From positions 9,672,001 through 9,736,000 of the forward strand of contig OX597814.1 in the NCBI GenBank assembly GCA_951406725.2: a stretch of DNA of 64,000 nt. Reading direction: 5' to 3'. The notes beneath the pieces are model-generated. The model saw nothing but the letters and a program-made list of their open reading frames with translations. It was not told where the DNA came from and did not search any database. The position numbers and the translations under genes were made by a program. Shown here piece after piece: positions 2,847-64,000 of the stretch (position 1 is its first letter; every line of letters starts with the position of its first letter). Origin of the DNA: Octopus vulgaris (Eukaryota).

Positions 2847-3067
2847 TCTCTCTCTCTTTTACTCTTTTACTTGTTTCAGTCATTTGACTGCGGCCATGCT
2901 GGAGCACCGCCTTTGGTCGAATAAATCGACCCCGGGACTTATTCTTTGTAAGCCCAGTACTTATTCTATCGGTCTCTTTTGCCGAACCGCTAAGTGACGG
3001 GGACGTAAACACACCAGCACCGGTTGTCAAGCACAGACACACAAACACAGGGACAAACACAGACACA

Positions 3068-3126
<59 letters not shown>

Positions 3127-3512
3127 ATATATATATATATATACGACAGGCTTCTTTCAGTTTCCGTCTACCAAATCCACTCACAAAGCTTTAGTCGGTC
3201 CGAGGCTATAGTAGAAGACACTTGCCCAAGATGCCACGCAGTGGGACTGAACCCGGAATCATGTTGTTGGTTAGCAAGCTACTTTATTTCATATAATTTG
3301 CCATTTAGGCATTTACAAAGAGGGGACAAACAAGGACAGACAAATATAAAGGGTGAAGTAGCTTAACACAGTTACAATTTTCGAATGAAATTACGGATAA
3401 GATTATAAACAATGAATTTTACGAAGGCAATGTTTAAAAATATTAATGATCATGTCGAAGGACGGACACCCAGCCATCCGGGTAGAACCTTTACTTTCTG
3501 ATCCGGTCACAC

Positions 3513-6500
3513 TTACCTGGTGCCAAACATACCCATCTTGTATGCCACAGGCTTCCATCTTTTCACAAACATATCTCGTGACAGACACCTCTTCTCCAGC
3601 CTGATTTTGCTACTGAGGTGGTAACTAAAAAAGTTAATCAACCCCTGGCCGGAGACAAAGGTGCCTGTCACTATACCTTTCGTACGCGTCTTCCATACTG
3701 TTTCTTTCAGTATGGCTACTACACAGAAAAAACAAGCCTTTCTTTCCCTGTTAAGGAAAGGGGGCGGCACAATCTCGATGATAGACTCAGCTGATAGCTG
3801 TACTCTTCCCATCACTGACAACAGTTGTTCTACAAAAGCTATCAGTCCCGATAACTCCGGACACTCCACGAATGCGTGCAAGACGGTCTCCCTATTCTGC
3901 TCACATCGCGGGCATGTCGGCGAGACGGCACTACCGTGCCTTGACAGCTTGTCGCGAACAGGTAAAGCCGCACGGAAACATTGCCAGGCTAGGGATTTCT
4001 GGTAATTATCCAGATACCCCGGCCCGAACGTCCTCCGGAACAGGTTGATCAACTGATTTTCATCGTAGCCCAGGGTCTCCCCCAAGGCGTCTTCGGACTT
4101 AATCTCCACTAACCCGCTATAGAAATCCGTGGTGGAACTCCTGTTGCCGGCGTTGCCCACCCGAGATAGTAGCTGGAGCGCCTGACGGCACTCCAAATGC
4201 CATTCACTCAGTTTAGGTCTCCGCTTGATCCATGCACCGATGTCCGTTAGGGATGTTAACTGGGGAAGGTAGAACCGGACGTGCGGCGACCACACCTGCT
4301 CTCCATCCAGGTAAAGCCAGAGGTGCCTCAACCTTAACGCGAGTTTTCGCATCCTCAGCCAAGGCATCCCTAGCCCACCCTTTAGCGGTTTCTGGCAGCA
4401 GACAGAGCGCTTTACAAGTGGCTTTCCTCCTTTCCACAAAAATCGGAAAAGGATTCTCTCCAACTTGTTCAGCCACAAATCGGGGCAAGGCACCACGGTC
4501 AAACGGTAGGTGATTACTGATGCTATAAACATCTGCACCACCTCCGCCTTCCCTAGCAGGGATAACGCCCGCCCAGACCAGGTCTGGGTTAGAGCGGTCA
4601 CCTTGTTGGCCACCTCACTCCAATTTTTCTCAATCTGGAGGTCTGGCCCGAACCAGACTCCGAGCAGCTTAACAGGACCTTCCGTCCAACGCCCTACGAC
4701 GTTATTGGACGGCATCGGCTTGCCCCTCCAGGTGCCGAGTTGCAAACCGACCGACTTGTCCTTGTTAACCTTTGCTCCTGCCACCGCCTCGTAGCTTTTT
4801 ATGGCCTCTTCCACCACTGGAAGCTGGCCTTCGTCTGCCACGATGATGGAGGTGTCATCCGCATACGCCGTAGCTCCTCTTCCACACCATAGATCATGCG
4901 GCGCGCCCCCTAGTGCCTCCAACTTCCGCAGCAAAGGCTCAAGAGCCAATACGTATAGGAGCGAGGACAGGGGACACCCTTGACGAACTGAACGCTCGAT
5001 CCTGAACGGCTTCGAAAAGGAACCGTTCACCTTGACTACAGACTCGATGTCGCTATACAAAGCAGCGATCCAACCTCGAAAGGTCGGGCCTAGGCCAGCC
5101 TCTCCGAGGACCGCCGCCAGGTACCGATGGTCGACCCTATCAAATGCTTTGGACTGGTCTAAATGTATCAGTGCTCCCCCTGCGCCAGAAAGCTTCCCCA
5201 CCCTCTCTAAGGAGTAGCGTATAAGGTGGAGATTGTCGTGGATCGTTCTGCCGGGGATAGCGCACGTTTGCGCTTCCCCGACAAGTTTGTCCACGACCCG
5301 CGCCAACCTTTTTGCTAGCACCTTGGCCAGAATCTTTAACTCTGTGTTTAACAGAGTTATGGGCCTGAAGTTCCCTATCTCGTCCCCCTTGTTCGGGTCC
5401 TTCCTGATCAAGGTCACCGCCCCCCGGCTCGCAGACTTGGGAATTCTCCCATTCTGCTGCCAGTTGGCGTAGACGCTAGCCAGCAGGTGCCCGAACAAGT
5501 TTGGCATACTTCTATAAAATTCATAGGGCAGACCATCGAGACCCGGCGACTTCTCCCCGGGGCACTTGCCCAACACCTCGATTACTTCCTCGGCTGTGAT
5601 TGGCCCTTCACAGCACTCAGCCTCTCGTGTCGAGAGGCGCGGACCACCAGACAGGAAGTCCCTAAGGGCCTCACCATGATCCAGCGTCCCGCACCTCCCG
5701 AACAACTCGGCGAAGTGCTTGTGGAGTGCCTCACACATCTCGTCCCGCTTCTTGATCGTGCATCCGTTTTCATCAACAAGAGACCCAATTGTGGCATCGT
5801 TTCCACGCTGTGTTTCTATCGTACGGGCCCATCCGGCAACATTAATTCCCTCACGGCCCAATGCTCGTACTTTAGCCCGGACTCTACATCCCTCATGTTT
5901 GGTTTTGAGGTGACGGTCTAATGCCGTTCTCGCCGCTAAAATGTGAGATGCAGAGCCCAACCTCAACGCCTCCTCTAAGTTCTTAACTAGTTGCCCTTCT
6001 ATTCTAGCCCTATCTAGTCTTAGTTGTTTACTAAATCTAATGGACTCGAATCGAATGGCTCTTTTGAGGGTGAACCACCACCGGTTATTAACCACGGCTC
6101 CGGTTAACGCCCTCTGCACTAACACCTTAATCCGGCTACGGTATGCCTCGCGTGTCAAAATAGACTTGTTCAGCTTCCAGTAGCCGGTTCCTATCTTAAG
6201 TGTGCTATCTATGTCCAGTCTACACGTGACCATTCTATGGTCAGTATAGGGCACCTGGACGAGCTGTGGACAACTAAAACTAGACTTATCTCTAGTTCTT
6301 ATCACTATCCTGTCTAGATAAGACTTGAACTTTCCGTCGCCACTCATCCAGGTCCACTCTGGGACGTTCGGATGGTCAAGTCTGTAACGATCTGCTAGCT
6401 GAAACCGCTTAAGCAGATCCACGAGACGTGAGTTCACTTTCCTATAGATCGAGCCAACGCTATCGATGTGTACGTCAACGATAGCATTAAAGTCCCCTAA

Positions 6501-6914
6501 TATCACTAAAGTCTTCGACGTCACGAGAAAGCCCTCTAGGCGCCGATAAAAATCAGTTTGGAAACCTCTAGCACAAGGTGCATAGAGTCCGATCAACCTG
6601 AAGGCCTTACTGCTGTATGTCACATCAAGGACGACCAGCCCACCTTCTGGGTCTACATAGACTGTACTTGTCTGTAGAGCCAAGTCTTTACGGATCAGTA
6701 CCACTACGCCCCCTCGCCCTCCGGTCTGGCCAGGAGACATGATTTTCTCGTAGCCATTCAGGAGAGGCGAGAAGGTTTGTAGGCTGTCCAGCTTGGTCTC
6801 TGTAGCAACCATCACATGTATATCATGTGATCTGAGGTCGTCGAGGAAACAAGCCTGCTTCCACTTCGAACTCAGACCACGCACATTTAAACAACCAAGG
6901 TTAAGCGAAGCCAT
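3513..6914 (-). CDS. ORF2: APE endonuclease - reverse transcriptase - CCHC (zf-RVT-like) polyprotein, 1133 aa
   Basis: APE motifs NVRGL, ETK, GDFN, YLDRI, TDH. RT motifs KSPGLDGLPYEFY, FRPITLLNTELKILAK, DQSKAFDRV, RQGCPLS, YADD. C-terminal CPRC-x8-H-x4-C. No stops or frameshifts. Confidence 0.96.
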   Translation of the reverse strand: MASLNLGCLNVRGLSSKWKQACFLDDLRSHDIHVMVATETKLDSLQTFSPLLNGYEKIMSPGQTGGRGGVVVLIRKDLALQTSTVYVDPEGGLVVLDVTYSSKAFRLIGLYAPCARGFQTDFYRRLEGFLVTSKTLVILGDFNAIVDVHIDSVGSIYRKVNSRLVDLLKRFQLADRYRLDHPNVPEWTWMSGDGKFKSYLDRIVIRTRDKSSFSCPQLVQVPYTDHRMVTCRLDIDSTLKIGTGYWKLNKSILTREAYRSRIKVLVQRALTGAVVNNRWWFTLKRAIRFESIRFSKQLRLDRARIEGQLVKNLEEALRLGSASHILAARTALDRHLKTKHEGCRVRAKVRALGREGINVAGWARTIETQRGNDATIGSLVDENGCTIKKRDEMCEALHKHFAELFGRCGTLDHGEALRDFLSGGPRLSTREAECCEGPITAEEVIEVLGKCPGEKSPGLDGLPYEFYRSMPNLFGHLLASVYANWQQNGRIPKSASRGAVTLIRKDPNKGDEIGNFRPITLLNTELKILAKVLAKRLARVVDKLVGEAQTCAIPGRTIHDNLHLIRYSLERVGKLSGAGGALIHLDQSKAFDRVDHRYLAAVLGEAGLGPTFRGWIAALYSDIESVVKVNGSFSKPFRIERSVRQGCPLSSLLYVLALEPLLRKLEALGGAPHDLWCGRGATAYADDTSIIVADEGQLPVVEEAIKSYEAVAGAKVNKDKSVGLQLGTWRGKPMPSNNVVGRWTEGPVKLLGVWFGPDLQIEKNWSEVANKVTALTQTWSGRALSLLGKAEVVQMFIASVITYRLTVVPCPDLWLNKLERILFRFLWKGGKPLVKRSVCCQKPLKGGLGMPWLRMRKLALRLRHLWLYLDGEQVWSPHVRFYLPQLTSLTDIGAWIKRRPKLSEWHLECRQALQLLSRVGNAGNRSSTTDFYSGLVEIKSEDALGETLGYDENQLINLFRRTFGPGYLDNYQKSLAWQCFRAALPVRDKLSRHGSAVSPTCPRCEQNRETVLHAFVECPELSGLIAFVEQLLSVMGRVQLSAESIIEIVPPPFLNRERKACFFCVVAILKETVWKTRTKGIVTGTFVSGQGLINFFSYHLSSKIRLEKRCLSRDMFVKRWKPVAYKMGMFGTR

Positions 6915-6930
6915 TACAAAAGTAAAGGTT

Positions 6931-8334
6931 CTACTTACATTTCGTTGGAGAGGTAGGGCCCGACCTCACCACACGTTTGTGGGCCCCTTCTTTCTCCTCT
7001 TTCTTCAGATAGTCCGGCAAGTTCGCGATATGCCGGATGGCGTTTGGGTGTCTGTCTTTTAATTGTTTGAACGTTGTTTCCGCAATCCACGCGTGTCTAT
7101 TTCGATCTTTGTATTTGTTGTACAGTCTTGCTGACTGATGCTGAACCACAATATCGTTTATGTATTTGTCTTGTGTGTCGAATTCAATTAATATGAGTTC
7201 ATTTTCTTTTTTGTCTTCTTTTTCTGGGCCAGTTGAGCGGGATTTTTTTTTCCGTGTCTGTGGTGTGTCTTTGTTTTTATTATTTTTTGTAGGGGATGTG
7301 GACGGGGATGCTGCACGAATTCTTTTACGAACTGGTGTAAATCCCCCCTCTGATACCTCCATGGTATCGTCTGTGGTAGCAATAGTTTGTTCGGTAGGCG
7401 CCGCAGTTTTTAGGGGGGTGGGAGGTTTTAATAGTGTAGGGGTTTGTGAGTGCGAGGGCTGGGGTTTTTCTTCAGTCTGTTTTGGGGTTGGCACCGTAAC
7501 AGCAGGAGTGGGATTTTTTGTTTTTGTAGGGGTAGGTGTGTTTGCAAGGGTAGGGACTTTTTTATTATCTGAGGGGCCTGGTGTCTGCGGTTTCTTTTGC
7601 TTGTCTGGACAGTCTACACGAATGTGGCCCTTTTTGCTGCAGGCGTAACAGGTGGGTTTTCGGCCTTCGACCTGTACCCTGAGGGCTACGTTCTCGCCCA
7701 CGAGCACCCTCTCAGGAAGGAGCTGCAGGTCCTCCGCTGTTCCTTGAATTAATATATTAATGTTACGCCCGAGCCAAAATCGAGGGGTAGAGCATGTTAC
7801 TTCTAGTATTTTTATTTTGTCCGCCCTTTTATATAACAGGGCGGCCACTACCTCTACCGGATCTACGTCCGGCGGGGCTTCTACAATCCTGACCCGGGAC
7901 GACCTGCGTCCCCTATAGCTTGGAAAAAGTACCACCTCCTTGGTTTTTAGGGGGTTCACAGAATGCCCGGGGGCCATTTCTTCCCCCGAGAAGCGGACAT
8001 CCACAGTGCCATATGCCCGTCCCCTGGCGACGTACACGATGTCCTTCCAAATCGGGGACAGGCATTTCTCGATGGTGCTTTTTTCAAAGTGTTTGAACCT
8101 TCTGCTTTGTGGACAGAAAGTTTTAAACACTACGGTCCGCTTCTCGGTCTCCACGATACTAGCGGAGGGTGATATTTTAACATCACCACCCTCCTCTTGC
8201 ATTCTTTTAAATAGCTCGACGAGCTGGTTGACATCGATGTCAATCTTCTCGGTAGCCACTGCGGCTACCTCAGAAAATTTTTTAACATTGCTCTCCTCAA
8301 GAGCACTACTTTCGTGAATAATTTCAACAGACAT
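6931..8334 (-). CDS. ORF1: Tx1/L1-type nucleic-acid-binding protein (467 aa from first ATG) with gag-like zinc knuckle and Pro/Thr/Lys-rich tail
   Basis: CYACSKKGHIRVDC = CX2CX4HX4C. Lies directly upstream of ORF2 on the same strand. The track's start at 8358 is non-ATG; the first ATG (MSVEII) is at 8334. Confidence 0.9.
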   Translation of the reverse strand: MSVEIIHESSALEESNVKKFSEVAAVATEKIDIDVNQLVELFKRMQEEGGDVKISPSASIVETEKRTVVFKTFCPQSRRFKHFEKSTIEKCLSPIWKDIVYVARGRAYGTVDVRFSGEEMAPGHSVNPLKTKEVVLFPSYRGRRSSRVRIVEAPPDVDPVEVVAALLYKRADKIKILEVTCSTPRFWLGRNINILIQGTAEDLQLLPERVLVGENVALRVQVEGRKPTCYACSKKGHIRVDCPDKQKKPQTPGPSDNKKVPTLANTPTPTKTKNPTPAVTVPTPKQTEEKPQPSHSQTPTLLKPPTPLKTAAPTEQTIATTDDTMEVSEGGFTPVRKRIRAASPSTSPTKNNKNKDTPQTRKKKSRSTGPEKEDKKENELILIEFDTQDKYINDIVVQHQSARLYNKYKDRNRHAWIAETTFKQLKDRHPNAIRHIANLPDYLKKEEKEGAHKRVVRSGPTSPTKCK

Positions 8335-8760
8335 TATTCTGTTGAAATTAGACAACACAAAAATTACGAATATTGGTTTCCCACAAAACTGGGAAACCTA
8401 TAGAAAGTTTTTCTTCCAAAGTAGTTCAAAAAAGCAGTTCAAAAATTCCAATTCCCACCCCCATTCGGGGGAGGGGCACGAAAATAGTCTGGCAGGACTA
8501 TATATAGTCACGTAAATAAAAAGCCACAGTGGCTAACAGTTCAACGGTAAGAAATTATTCAATTATTTCCCGGTAAAACCGGAGAACAAGACAGTTCAGC
8601 AACGTTTAAAGGCAAATTTTCAGTAGTAGGAATTCAACAATTAATAACACACCAAAACTCTTACCGGGAAGAAAACGCGTCCAAACCGTAGTACGGTAGG
8701 CAAAGTCACTCTTCTGTCAGTGAGGTTAGCAAGCTACTTACCACACAGCCACTCCTGCGT

Positions 8761-9367: not shown

Positions 9368-9753
9368 GGCGCAGGAGTGGCTGTGTGGTAAGTAGCTTGC
9401 TAACCAACCACATGGTTCCGGGTTCAGTCCCACTGTGTGGCATCTTAGGAAAGTGTCTTCTGCTATAGCCCCGGGTCGACCAATGCCTTGTGAGTGGATT
9501 TGGTAGACGGAAACTGAAAGAAGCCCGTCGTATATATGTATATATGTATATGTTTGTCTCCCTAGCATTGCTTGACAACCGATGCTGGTGTGTTTACGTC
9601 CCCGTCACTTAGCGTTTCGGCAAAAGAGACCGATAGAATAAGTACTGGGCTTGCAAAAGAATAAGTCCCGGGGTCGAGTTGCTCGACTAAAAGGCGGTGC
9701 TCCAGCATGGCCGCAGTCAAATGACTGAAACAAGTAAAAGAGAGTAAAGAGAG
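9368..9753 (+). mobile_element. SINE family B, full length
   Basis: GGCGCAGGAGTGGCTGTGTGG (A box)...GGGTTCAGTCCC (B box)...internal TA/TG microsatellite...GAAACAAGTAAAAGAG tail. Confidence 0.9.
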
Positions 9754-50100: not shown

Positions 50101-50492
50101 AAAGCAATGAGTTGGTGGAATCGTTGTCACGGCGGACAGAATACTTAGCGGTATTGTCGACCTCGGCGGAATTTGAACTCACAATTTGAACGTTGTGAGT
50201 TCAAATTCCGCCGAGGTCGACTTTGCCTTTCATCCTTTCGGGGTCGATAAATTAAGTACCAGTTAAGCACTGGGGTCGATATAATCGACTTAATACCTAT
50301 GTCTGTCCATGTTTGTCTCCTCTATGTTTAGCCCCTTGTGGGTAATAAAGAAATAGGTATTTCTTTCGGCTTCACGTTTTGAAGTTCGGCCCTGCCTTTC
50401 GTCCTTTCGGGACCGATGAAATAAGTACCAGTTGCAAAACTGACAAGCCATAACCTATAACATTTCAGCCCTTGTACCTACAGTAGAAAGGT
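50101..50492 (+). mobile_element. Older family-A-related SINE with a nested, 5'-rearranged young family-A copy (50156-50355)
   Basis: GGTATT at both junctions (50150, 50356). 29-bp inverted duplication at the 5' junction. Confidence 0.8.
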
Positions 50493-53144
50493 TTTTTTTT
50501 ACAATTATCTTTATGTCGAACCTTAAATTTGTTTCAATAAAGACAAATAAATAGAATTTAATTTTGAAATGTAATTTTCGGAAGACGAACAATAAATAAA
50601 TAATGACAACTTAGTAAAAGATATAATGGTTAGTAGTAAAGTTATTACTAAGTATTGTATACTATAGAGGTTGACAATTCATATTCGTCTTTTTTATTAC
50701 TTGTAGTTCCATAGATATTTTCACTGACATATAATATTTATAGAATAAGGTGTGGTTTTAAAAATGTTTAAACTGGAGTTTTTAACGACCGCTTAAATTT
50801 GAAAACAAACTCTCTTTGCTTGTATTGCTCGTTGTGTCTCAGAGTAACCATATTTACATATAAGATAATTTAAATTAGTCAGAGCTCATTGCCTGAATGG
50901 GATTTCTTTTAGCATTTTAGAGAAAACAAAAATTGGTGCTTAGATGAGAGGTTCGTAGCATAGTAAGGAGGTTTCTTGTTTTCTTTTGTAATGTTGAAAA
51001 TGACAATTCAGAAGCAGAAAATTGTTGGAGACTTTAGTTTCGTCTTTCGTAATTTGAGAGTCCAGCAATTTTGATCCAACCGATGTAAATAACAGCAGCA
51101 ATAATACGTAGGGTAATTTCAATCAATTATAATAGTTTAAAAAAATATTTGTACCACTGTTTATTAAAATGTTATCAATAATGAGGGTAGCTATATCAAA
51201 CTCCATTCTTCATCAAGTGCCACATATTAGAGGAGGCTCCTAGTAACAACAGTGTAGCGCAAAACGGCGGTGCATCAGCATGGCCGCAGCTCTGAGCTGA
51301 AACTTTAAAGAAAAAAAAATTATAATCGTTTTAGTTTGTCTGAATCTACAGTTTTCACAAAGGATTTTTTCACTTACCGAATCTGGAGGTTAAGACAGTA
51401 CCCATGGCGTTTCTGTGCAAGCGAAACCGCTGAAATCGCTGCTGTCAATGTCCTGTTTAAACTTGCAAATCGATACTTGCAAGAAAGACATGAACTGGGA
51501 AGAAATTCCAGAAGGACGATGTTCTGGGAAGGAAGTATTATATGTAGCAGGGTCAGTGCCAGAACTGGAGTGGATAGACACAACAAGAATAGTTAAAGCG
51601 GGTTGAAAGTGTTTGAGTGGAGGAATCACAAGATCGGGTGTCTTTGAAGAACAGACGCTATCATAGCAGTGATAGAAATGGCAAAGAGAGGAGAAAGTAC
51701 ACATGTGGACCAGCAACTAGAGAGTGTTGGTAAGTGATTTTATACCAATCAATCGTGTGGTCTTTCTCTGGATACAGTCTGACATATCCTTAATGTCTGT
51801 CTTTAAGTAAATACTGAATATAGGTAAAACAGTATCGCATGAGTTTAATATTTAATCTGGGTACACTATTTTCTGGGTGTAATATCCAAACTGAGTACAA
51901 TAATGTTGTCGGTGTACAATACTGGATCTAAGTACATCAAGACTAGTTTAGCTTGTAATAGAAGTATTCACACCATTTTGTGCTACGTGTATTTTTGGGT
52001 GATCTTCATAAATAATCATCGCTATCCTGTAAGATTGGTTGATCGCTAGCTTTTTAGTTGTTGGAGTTAGGTTGCTCTAATGACAGCATCCTTTTCTTTC
52101 GGCATTCAGGTTTCTTTCTCTGTTAGTTAACTGTTATTGCTCAGTAACATATTAACAATAATACATAATACGTCAGAAGCTCTCTACAACATTCGTTATG
52201 GGTCCACCTGCAGTGTGTATCCACTGGTGTATATAATATAAAGGAAAACGCCATTGCTTTAATGTTTTCACGTAATGTACATTTACTCCACTTTCTTCTC
52301 GTGTGAAATGTTTCGAATTTGTCACAATAAATTACCGAACTTGCCTCCCAGTGGTTGATTTAGAATTGCATGGATTTATCTGACAATTAATCTTTTGAAT
52401 TCCTTAATATTTTTTTACTTGCATCTTTTGTATTTCTATCAACATTACGTTTTGACCAGTTTACTCTCTGATTGTCTTAAGGTATCACATTAGTAAATAT
52501 ACACATATTTGCGTTAAGAGATCGAAGCATTATACCAAAAAGAGGACAGTTGCGTAAGAGCTGAAGAATAGTTAGTAATTTAATCAATGATAGATTATTG
52601 TCGTATACGAGAGATACATTTGCATTTACGTGTACCAAATGCTAAAACTATTTGTTGGAACTGGCTGTCTTTGAAGTGAATGCAATAGATCGATAATTTA
52701 ATTCGTCAAAGTGGTTACCGTTCTTGACGATGTAAAACCACAATCACTTTAATTCCTGGCATTCGATCCCAATAAAACAGGATTCGTGAAGACAATCATG
52801 TTTCGTCAGAGTGGTAGAGTTTGAAAGAATGGATGATTCAGAACATTAATATGAAGCAAATCAAAGCATGCTTCAACTACCATGTGGGCAGCATATGCAT
52901 AAATTTCGTGTGACTTTCTTACAAAATCCAGGGCTGAGCTAAAATTATATACCTTCGACGAAAGGTTCTGCTCCAAACGTAAGAGCCCTCCAGTTTATCT
53001 CATGGTAAAATGGTTCAGTCCGCTTTCACGGTTTTGCCTTTTCCGTAAAAGTGCGTCAATACAAAATATTTAGTTGACTGAAATAGAATAAGGAAAGAAA
53101 AGAAATAGCAGATGCAAACAAACCATGAATGAAACCACGCCTCA

Positions 53145-53216
<72 letters not shown>

Positions 53217-53220
<4 letters not shown>

Positions 53221-53843
53221 CTGGTGGGAACACAAACCACCCCCAGTGCTTGAAAATGACCACATCTCACTCCTCTGGAACTTCACCATTCAAACTGACA
53301 GGAAGATAGATGCAAATAGGCCAGACATCATATTGAAAGACTTCAAACAAAGAACATGCCTCCTCATTGATATGACTGTCCCAATCGATATAAACGTATC
53401 TGTCAAGACCTACCAAAAACTGAGCAAATATAAAGATCTTGAAATAGAAATCAGCAAAATGTGGAAGCTGAAGACTAAAACAATACCTGTTGTCATAGGT
53501 GCCCTGGGAATGATAGCAAAAGGGGCTGATAGCTACCTAACTCAGATACCAGGAAACCCAAAAATGGCAGAAGTTCAAAAGATAGTGCTCATGGGAACTG
53601 CTCATATCCTACGCAAAATACTCTCTATGTAATCTCAAGGTTTAAAACAAACATAATTTTCGGTTTAAAAAAAAAAACAAAAAACTTTTTTTTTAGACAT
53701 TCATTAGTACAACATCCCCACCCCCCAAATATATGGCACACTAGGCATAACAACAACATGAACTTCCAACCCTGTTGTCTCTTGAGGTCTCTGTGTGAGA
53801 CTTGGAGCCAACTTGTACAAATATAAAGCAAAAGTCAAACATA

Positions 53844-55631: not shown

Positions 55632-55862
55632 AGAAGAAGAATGAAACCTTTGGTGATTTGTTATGCACCACATATACTATGTAGTTGACGTTACATGCCC
55701 CTTTGATCCACGAATAGTCAAGAAAGAAGACAAAACATAGATAGATACAACTCTCTTACGTACGAAAAAAGTCCAGCTATGGAACATGAAGAAAGTGAAG
55801 ATAGTGTTAATTATTGTTTGGTCCTTGGGAACAGTATCAGAAGGCATCAAGAAGAATATAAA
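55632..55862 (+). mobile_element. Dong/R4-like RLE fragment 5
   Basis: VDVTCPFDPRI...LWNMKKVKIVLIIVWSLGTVSEG. Confidence 0.7.
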
Positions 55863-56538
55863 GGTGCCGAGCTGCAGGTCCACCAATTTCTCTTGGTTAT
55901 TCTTTGCTCCAGCCAACACTTCGAATTCCTTTAAGGTAGGGCTGATCACCTCGATATCCGAAATGTCCGACACCATAACAATGACTTTGTCCGCTTTAAC
56001 TGAAACGAATGTTCTGTATTCTAGTTCACGTAGGATGCCCCTCGAAACATCCAGCTTCTGTAGCAATGGCTGGTGATAGGAGGCCATATAATTTGACCAC
56101 TGTACATTGTAGAGATACAGTCCCGTTTTCAGTTGTCGTAGATATATTTGTTTGGGAGTGCGCATGACTATGTGTCACCGACGAACACCGACCTCTTGGC
56201 CAAAATCCTGTAATCTGTGTTTAGCAGTGTTACAAGCCTAAAATTATCTATTTCGCCCCTTTGTTCGGGTTCTTCCCCAGTAGCACCACCACGCAAGAGC
56301 TCACAACACTGGGAATTCTACGATTCTATTGCCAGCTGCTGTAGACAATAGCGAAGAGATCACCAAACGCGCCTGGCACATGAAAATAAAGATTAAAGAT
56401 CTTAAAGAGCAGTTATCAGCATTTCGCAGAACCCTGTATCTGTGCCCTAAAGACGCGGCATGCTGTCAAGATAAGAGGTGAAATCCACCACCGTTTCCAA
56501 CCCACCACACGCTCTGTACAGTTCGGCAAAGTTTCACT
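55862..56538 (-). pseudogene. Decayed Tx1-clade ORF2 (RT) fragment
   Basis: EIDNFRLVTLLNTDYRILAK and LAGAKNNQEKLVDLQLGT align with the intact ORF2 (EIGNFRPITLLNTELKILAK; VAGAKVNKDKSVGLQLGT). Confidence 0.8.
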
Positions 56539-57170
56539 GAAGACAGAGTTAAAACCAAAGAAATTAAAAAACTGAGAAATATCAGGATGTAGCCAGCGAG
56601 CTGAAGAGACTGTAGGAGACTGAGACAACAATTATATTCCGGTGGTGATTGGTGCTCTTGGCATCGCAAAAAAGCTACCTAAACGACTGAAAGATATTGG
56701 AGTTGATACTCGCGTTGTTGATTTGCAGAAAAGTACCATCCTATATTCTGCGAGAAGCCAAGGAAGAAATTTCGAGATTTGAGGTAACTTGTTGTCATCA
56801 AGCCTCACGATAATCTTCCTGATAATTAAACTGACATGTAGTAACACGAATAGTCAAAAGGGAAGGCGAAGAAGTAGATAAATACAACCCTCTTAAGTAC
56901 GAAATTGCTCGGGTATGGAAAATGAAGAATGCGCCAATTATTGTTGGGTCCTTGGGAACAGTATCAGAAGGCACTAAAAGAAATATAAAAGAAATAGGAA
57001 TAGAGTACCCAGTAGAACTGTTACCAGAGGTTTGCCTTCTTGGCACGGCCAGAATCATCAATAACCAGTAAAGTATTAGTTGAAAAGAACAGGTATCGTA
57101 GCCTGCAGGCAGCAAGCCCGCTACGCATGCAAATCCCCAGGAGCGCCAACAAAAACTGAGATAAAAAGAA
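56539..57170 (+). mobile_element. Two further Dong/R4-like RLE 3' fragments (56539-56830, 56835-57170)
   Basis: PVVIGALG...DLQKSTILYSAR and PIIVGSLGTVSEG...EVCLLGTARII; ends in (TAA)n. Confidence 0.75.
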
Positions 57171-60406: not shown

Positions 60407-60668
60407 ACGCGTCTGAAAGGATTGGAGACAAACACTTTCCTCTCTGGTCAATCTCTCATCAACTTCTACAAGTACCACTTGAAAAGGAAAGTGAGAGTAG
60501 AGAGGCAAGTTTTGTCTAGCGAATGTTTCAGAAAAAGTTGGGTAAATGTAGCAAGGCTGGCACGTATGAATAACGAAGCCACCTTGAGCATGATCCTATG
60601 AACCCAGAAATTGAAAACAGAGAGTTGCTTATTCGCAAAAAAAAAAAAAAGAAATATAACATGTGACT
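60407..60668 (+). mobile_element. Internal fragment of the second Tx1 family (ORF2 C-terminus)
   Basis: TRLKGLETNTFLSGQSLINFYKYHLKRKVRVER vs ORF2 TRTKGIVTGTFVSGQGLINFFSYHLSSKIRLEK. Confidence 0.85.
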
Positions 60669-63767: not shown

Positions 63768-64000
63768 AAGGCGGAGAACTGATAGAAACGTTAGCACACC
63801 GGGCGAATGCTTAGCGGTATTTCGTCAGCCGCTACGTTCTGAGTTCAAATTCCGCCGAGGTCGACTTTGCCTTTCATCCTTTCGGGGTCGATTAAATAAG
63901 AACCAGTTACGCACTGGAGTCGATATAATCGACTTAATCCGTTTGTCTGTCCTTGTTTGTCCCCTCTGTGTTTAGCCCCTTGTGGGTAGTAAAGAAATAG
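63768..64000 (+). mobile_element. SINE family A, full length (ends at window edge)
   Basis: A/B boxes and 3' tail TTTGTCTGTCCTTGTTTGTCCCCTCTGTGTTTAGCCCCTTGTGGGTAGTAAAGAAATAG. Confidence 0.92.

Follow-up and report, generated by a model that had tools for sequence, protein, structure and literature searches.

A Tx1-type LINE and a family of SINEs in Octopus vulgaris share a 26-nucleotide block near their 3' ends

The window, by which we mean the whole stretch of 64,000 nucleotides of Octopus vulgaris DNA that was analysed, contains on its minus strand a full-length LINE of the L1 clade and of Tx1 type (3285..8723), 5439 bp long and devoid of a poly(A) tail. Its ORF1 (6931..8397, minus strand), 488 amino acids from stop to stop, carries a CCHC zinc knuckle (Pfam zf-CCHC, E 4e-4); its ORF2 (3513..6965, minus strand), 1150 amino acids from stop to stop, is intact and contains, according to Pfam, an APE endonuclease, a reverse transcriptase and a zf-RVT domain. 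A 3'UTR of 228 nucleotides follows (3285..3512, minus strand). The element is bordered by a perfect target site duplication (TSD) of 16 bp (8739-8724 upstream, 3284-3269 downstream, on the minus strand), in line with the approximately 15 bp of the L1 clade. Its host is a SINE that belongs to a second family, B, in whose head it was inserted: the 5' piece that it cut off (8724..8759, minus strand) is 100% identical to the B head that stands uninterrupted at 9370, the remainder of the host copy lies at 2862..3284 (minus strand), and the 16-mer of the TSD occurs once in uninterrupted SINE-B heads.

The LINE has the features of the L1 clade, namely a separate ORF1 and an ORF2 with APE endonuclease and reverse transcriptase that is nearest to L1: of the relatives with a solved structure, human L1 ORF2p comes nearest, with E 8.5e-67 versus 6e-20 for R2. 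The top named database match of ORF2 is a protein of Argonauta hians (58%), and lower matches are named ‘Transposon TX1’; it is from these matches that we place the element in the Tx1 branch. In a reverse transcriptase tree of 24 rows, which holds no curated Tx1 references, ORF2 groups with the Argonauta protein (100/99), and the two stand in an open fork with two ‘Transposon TX1’ proteins, apart from the algal rows. This tree does not prove Tx1, and the element is best described as a probable member of that branch.

Other remains of retroelements are scattered along the window. A decayed reverse transcriptase fragment at 55830-56542 (minus strand) comes from a further Tx1-type element, with 29-47% amino acid identity to ORF2, and short ORFs at 53129-53632 and 13212-13721 (both plus strand) resemble retroelement remains, with no Pfam match at E 0.001. 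A trinucleotide tract of about 5 kb (TTA/CTA-type, ~14500-19700) produces many spurious long ORFs.

A family of SINEs, which we call A, is represented by five full-tailed copies within the 64 kb, all on the plus strand; it is short, about 232 nucleotides, multicopy and non-coding. The copies are mutually 88-93% identical (six pairs). The copy at 63768..63999 has its downstream flank cut by the end of the window. The copies at 22341..22573, 26060..26290 and 39106..39338 are the three of the five in which TSDs can be read, of 15 bp (13/15 matching), 16-17 bp and 14 bp (12/14 matching); the third sits within an A-type head of greater age, at GGTATTTC. The fifth copy, at 50156..50355, is 5'-truncated and likewise lies inside an A-type element older than itself, at GGTATTTC; it has a TSD of 6 bp only, beside an inverted 5' piece (50156-50184) that duplicates its own sequence, as might result from a fold-back during reverse transcription. 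A further copy, at 1901-2084, breaks off about 9 nucleotides into the tail block described below.

The head of SINE A contains A- and B-box-like words that can be seen by eye, and neither ARAGORN nor Rfam reports a tRNA in the head of SINE A or of SINE B. The four full-length copies tested have no internal T4 run. The body of SINE A has no exact match in the genome and viral contig collections searched, and membership of MetaSINE was set aside since, by eye, the body is unlike the BivaMeta sequences that were available. The 3' half of SINE B resembles, also by eye, the body of family A, and B is possibly a dimeric SINE. Three octopus tRNA-SINEs, OK, OR1 and OR2, were reportedly described by Ohshima and Okada in 1994. 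Both A and B are likely to be among the abundant octopus SINE families already known, and family A could not be assigned to a named one by its sequence; in the accessible parts of Matetovici 2016, Nishihara 2016 and Luchetti 2016, OR1 and OR2 are named as CORE-SINEs only.

The link between the LINE and SINE A is a block of 26 nucleotides (14 T, 8 C, 4 G and no A) that lies in the LINE's 3'UTR at 3319..3344 (minus strand) and opens the tail of SINE A. An earlier note on this DNA had claimed an exact match there, with near-exact ones in four further SINE copies, and this is what we find: positions 3344-3319 of the LINE and 63942-63967 of the SINE (plus strand) agree with no mismatch, and the block recurs in the copies of SINE A at 22516, 26233 and 39281 with 2 mismatches each and at 50298 with 3 (23-24/26). 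The similarity between the LINE and the SINE tail extends from the block to position 3315 (29/30). The block starts 60 nucleotides ahead of the common GAAATA end in the LINE and 58 nucleotides ahead of it in all five full-tailed copies of SINE A; it is predicted to be unpaired, and is the best-conserved part of the shared tail.

Pure chance was rejected as the origin of the block. It has 6 matches in the window, while 100 shuffles yield none. For the SINE copy 63768..63999 compared to the LINE, the longest exact match measures 26 nucleotides, versus 10 when the last 60 nucleotides of the LINE are removed; with 300 shuffled 3'UTRs, the longest match has a mean of 7.9 and a maximum of 11 nucleotides.

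An old SINE at 25727..25890 (minus strand, found with blastn) has the head and body of family A, at 68% identity, and a different tail. When family A is compared to it with blastn, the similarity ends at query position 187, that is, at 22516, the first base of the block. Because the two part company at precisely this base, the block can be taken to open an exchangeable tail module, as is expected of a tail derived from a LINE. SINE B contains a sequence that loosely resembles the block (23/27), near 38397-38423 and in other B copies, past an internal microsatellite. The exact block has no match in the viral, metagenome and genome contig collections searched, and a search for the C-terminus of ORF2 in metagenomes gave 73 pattern matches, none of which was confirmed.

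Beyond the block, the two tails agree in layout more than in letters. Both the LINE and the five full-tailed copies of SINE A terminate in GAAATA (3285..3290 on the minus strand in the LINE) without poly(A), and both have, ahead of this end, a predicted hairpin with a 4-bp stem and a 5-nucleotide loop in the same register: TGCC-TAAAT-GGCA in the LINE (3299..3311, minus strand) and GCCC-CTTGT-GGGT in the SINE. The common architecture described in the earlier note is thus confirmed. However, only 16-19 of the terminal 34 nucleotides are identical, 40-44 over the last 60 when the sequences are aligned on their common end, and 4 of the 5 loop bases differ. Of 1000 shuffles, 6-10 attain the score of the terminal alignment, a result that looks better than it is because both ends are fixed at GAAATA.

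The earlier note proposed that covariation in the hairpin be checked. In a gap-free alignment, 23 of 24 cells pair, versus 25-46% when the partners are slid. Two of the four pairs are altered on both sides between LINE and SINE, which amounts to a single evolutionary contrast; when substitutions are placed at random at the rate observed, the four pairs all survive in 3-8% of trials, and in about 1% they do so with two double changes. The fold of the LINE end is slightly more stable than its shuffles (z ~ -2.1), whereas the SINE ends, with z between -0.19 and -0.90, do not exceed theirs. Covariation thus gives modest support to a shared structure, as one event and not as independent events, and the SINE fold itself is unremarkable. 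A related proposal, that this lineage recognises a structured tail, is weakly supported by these folding and pairing results; the best-conserved part, the block, is unstructured. As for TSD lengths, which were said to agree, the 16 bp of the LINE are perfect, while the 14-17 bp of SINE A can be read in three of the five copies only. The position of the LINE within a SINE-B head is not mentioned in the earlier note.

Public contigs from 4 of 24 listed runs (none of the 24 on record as RNA), the four belonging to four studies and bearing three organism labels, were aligned to positions 3258-3760; the contigs listed comprise 24 of 320 loose ends, 32 of 6547 pieces and 15 of 17 joints. Two records show no difference from the LINE: X1 record 3 (3323-3576), which leads from ORF2 across the 3'UTR and enters the block, and X16 record 25 (3329-3582), which leads from ORF2 to the block at a depth of 402, versus 4.3-10.0 for the seven other X16 records listed, bearing in mind that contig depth is not copy number. 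With 3 differences, X15 record 17 (3262-3595) goes from ORF2 to the block and on into the SINE-B flank, and may represent this very insertion. The simplest reading of the zero-difference contigs is that the LINE belongs to a young, multicopy family.

Seven of the 15 joints listed (17 in total) connect a diverged end of ORF2 to the block, with an unalignable 3'UTR in between. For four of these seven, the match extends beyond 3344 into sequence of the LINE type, not of the SINE type; the three whose match ends at 3340-3344 may rather represent insertions of SINE A near an old LINE. Listed records correspond to three of the joints, with identities in ORF2 of about 83%, 86% and 88% (X12 records 9 and 11, and X16 record 27), and the diverged X1 records 1 and 2 have the block, the hairpin and the SINE-B flank on one contig. 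The earlier note had allowed that the block might be missing from other copies of Tx1: both young copies and copies with 83-88% identity in ORF2 carry it, and a chimera limited to one copy is rejected on the same grounds. In a sublineage of Tx1, the block outlasts the remaining 3'UTR, which suggests that it may be under selection there. These contigs support the view that the shared tail is a feature of a Tx1 sublineage, and not of one copy.

Ten of the 24 loose ends listed (320 in total) diverge at 3292-3314, keeping the hairpin or GAAATA with the block absent, and X1 record 4 combines such a blockless terminal module with an ORF2 that is 90% identical and with the same SINE-B site. Because many contigs with the terminal module are without the block, the latter is not required by every relative. 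The strings at these loose ends are consensus letters of 1-11 contigs, most of them not tied to Tx1. By eye, five of the ten show CTCT(A/G/T)TGT, in element sense, just ahead of the hairpin, where SINE A has A or G, and two of these five have a TTTAT loop, nearer to the CTTGT of the SINE than the TAAAT of the LINE copy is. Among the loose ends listed (24 of 320) and the pieces listed (32 of 6547), no Tx1 contig has a complete terminus of the SINE type. Four loose ends at 3304-3311 (X1, X15 and X16) have, in element sense, about GCAAAGTTAC in place of the block before the same hairpin, a second type of tail within this group of terminal modules.

A relative with yet another ending lies in the window itself. 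The copy at 60407..60650 (plus strand), 5'-truncated and of the same Tx1 lineage (55% amino acid identity), has a 3'UTR of 35 nucleotides that ends in A14, with neither block nor hairpin; both of its flanks begin with GAAATAT. Since there are blockless contigs and this poly(A)-ended copy, the shared tail must be confined to one sublineage.

Where the elements insert, and when, bears on which LINE could have moved SINE A. In the diverged X1 records 1, 2 and 4 and in X15 record 18, the sequence runs on into the SINE-B head at the site where the LINE is inserted, a count biased by the fact that the reference included that flank and by the listing of 24 of 320 loose ends. Within this flank-biased sample, the LINE and the diverged contigs show the preference, typical of Tx1, for one fixed position within a repeated sequence. 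Diverged Tx1-type copies at one SINE-B head site suggest a lineage that targets the tRNA-like promoter region of the SINE. For SINE A, the word GGTATTT directly follows three of the five copies (at 22574, 39339 and 50356), 3 matches versus 0.23 expected, and two of these three copies are nested in older A-type heads. GGTATTT is a word of SINE A's own head, hence the nested copies; moreover, the GAAATA end of SINE A is the reverse complement of TATTTC in the target, and a read-through RNA could pair with the nicked primer. In this small sample, the preferred targets therefore differ, SINE-B head for the LINE versus GGTATTT for SINE A. Ages differ too: SINE A is older than the LINE, because its copies are 88-93% identical to each other, while the LINE is intact and has zero-difference contigs.

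Consequently, the claim that this very family of LINEs mobilises SINE A does not hold up well: four of the five loop bases are different, the targets differ and the LINE is younger. Neither a near-identical terminus with a cognate loop nor a shared target preference is found, and the family of 8723-3285 is probably not the motor of SINE A. The mismatches of loop, target and age are better accommodated by a sister or ancestral subfamily.

The reading that we favour, with a confidence somewhat better than even, is that SINE A acquired its tail from the Tx1 sublineage and was mobilised in trans by a sister or ancestral subfamily, not by the young family of the window. A Tx1 sublineage without poly(A) would mark its own RNA with the pyrimidine-rich block and the small hairpin, and the tRNA-headed SINE A would have gained this tail by a template switch onto Tx1 RNA. 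The ORF2 protein would bind the two-part signal, block and hairpin, and begin target-primed reverse transcription at GAAATA; that of a sister or ancestral subfamily would thus copy SINE A in trans, leaving TSDs of about 15 bp, which, with the site preference, may be the footprint of a Tx1 endonuclease. The subfamilies would later have drifted in loop sequence and target site, hence a conserved block beside a half-diverged terminus. To judge from the 3' end that they share (40-44/60), SINE A and Tx1 appear to behave like a stringent pair.

There is the possibility that the flow was reversed: a Tx1 subfamily would have captured the block from SINE A, by template switch or gene conversion at CTCT-TGT, while another LINE moves SINE A. 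We regard this as unlikely, though several observations speak for it. A perfect block adjoins a half-diverged terminus, many relatives with the terminal module are without the block, and the targets of the LINE and of SINE A are unlike. Furthermore, in X12 contigs the depth is 8.5 million for the block versus about 6,000 for the LINE's own 3'UTR; because the block is about a thousandfold deeper, donor templates of SINE A abound. However, the block survives in Tx1 copies (83-88% identity) that have no other alignable part of the 3'UTR; a capture would have to begin exactly at the junction between body and tail of the SINE, with no body included; and the register of the hairpin and the GAAATA end are common to both as well.

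A second alternative, to which we give a rather low probability, slightly below that of a capture, accepts a Tx1 origin for the tail and makes it a relic: SINE A would owe its later moves to relaxed recognition or to a different LINE, with pairing of read-through RNA to the preferred site as an aid, and with no stringent dependence. Loop and terminus have indeed diverged, and a poly(A)-ended Tx1 relative exists (60407-60650). Since SINE A has no internal T4 run, Pol III would read into the flank, where GGTATTT follows three of the five copies. There is also a precedent in crocodilian SINEU, attributed to Tx1 without a common 3' end (Kojima 2015, PMC4494074, in the portion available). Yet all five full-tailed copies of SINE A keep the tail down to GAAATA without poly(A), and the lengths of the SINE TSDs match that of the LINE. 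Convergence, in which the block would be a degenerate TGTY repeat arisen twice, finds some encouragement in its lack of A, its TGTC/TGTT-like composition and the looser version inside SINE B near 38397, but is very unlikely given a match of 26/26 at an equal distance from the end, the shuffling results above, and a hairpin register and terminus common to both elements.

If tail acquisition from Tx1 and mobilisation in trans are right, a Tx1 partner would identify what drove the spread of much of the SINE DNA in the octopus: SINEs account for about 11.6% of the genome of O. vulgaris in the part of Bonar 2026 (PMC13282606) that was available. A broader conjecture, which we advance tentatively and rate below even, is that an octopod Tx1 sublineage is a stringent, poly(A)-independent L1-clade element of animals with a two-part signal, that it drove a SINE expansion that ranks among the largest in the octopus genome, that its subfamilies split SINE-head targets between them, and that a sister branch switched to poly(A). 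The transition from stringent to relaxed recognition would then fall within one animal lineage.

Octopus repeats have been annotated before. In the available text of Marino 2022 (PMC8967140) and Bonar 2026 (PMC13282606), annotations include L1-Tx1, tRNA-Core and tRNA-Deu without naming partners, and 13 families of active L1-Tx1 with 421 recent insertions are counted in O. vulgaris; in the octopus repeat literature, as far as its text was accessible, no partner LINE is assigned to octopus SINEs. Nor did we find in the literature any L1 or Tx1 of an animal that shares its tail with a SINE, a search that left the annotations of Repbase, Dfam and SINEBase outside its scope. SINEBase, in the accessible text on it, derives consensus regions from LINEs for Bov-B, CR1 and L2 only, and ‘Tx1’ occurs 0 times in the main text of Martelossi 2024 (PMC11481361), as in Kojima 2018.

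SINE A and Tx1 may be compared to the known systems, here as far as the accessible parts of the sources describe them. With the stringent pairs of L2, CR1, RTE and Nimb, they have in common a tail homology of about 60 nucleotides and a stem-loop near the end. The bivalve pairs of Martelossi 2024 (PMC11481361) were accepted at 35-61 bp and 72-95% identity, and 40-44 identical positions out of 60 fall within or just under this range. The partners differ, however, being L2, CR1, CR1-Zenon or Nimb in those pairs; and classical pairs are most alike in their terminal part, while here only 16-19 of the last 34 nucleotides are identical. Zebrafish ZfL2-1 and ZfL2-2 use the loop as the site of specificity, and swaps of the loop sharply lower mobility (Hayashi 2014, PMC4176376): L2 needs a cognate loop, whereas four of five loop bases differ here, and to carry this specificity over to Tx1 is an extrapolation by analogy.

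The closest case on the side of Tx1 is that of SINEU, tied to Tx1-Mar by target preference in the available part of Kojima 2015 (PMC4494074), where no LINE has the 3' end of SINEU. In both systems a SINE is attributed to Tx1 machinery, and both involve fixed sites in another repeat, and tandem or nested insertions of SINEs. The sharing is of opposite kinds: SINEU ends in poly(A) and shares its target, while SINE A and the LINE have a common 3' end and different targets.

So far, tails shared between SINEs and L1-type elements are known mainly in plants and algae, and here the element is an animal LINE of Tx1 type. The accessible text of Ohshima 2012 (PMC3472496) and 2013 (PMC3747384) lists 3 SINEs with L1 tails among 58 pairs, all from green plants or algae: ZmSINE2 and ZmSINE3 of maize with LINE1-1_ZM, and SINEX-3_CR of Chlamydomonas with L1-1_CR. 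The same text leaves open the stringency of ancestral elements of the L1 clade, a question that becomes testable when one genome offers both an intact Tx1 of an animal whose tail is shared and a poly(A)-ended sister. As presented in those sources, the plant pairs resemble SINE A and Tx1 in that the LINE is of the L1 clade, with a conserved 3' end and a small hairpin, common with the SINE; compensatory changes in the stem are known there, and the octopus hairpin shows modest signs of them in one contrast. Unlike them, the octopus pair comes from an animal and from a branch of Tx1 type, its tails have neither poly(A) nor poly(T), and the part that is best kept is an unstructured block upstream of the hairpin.
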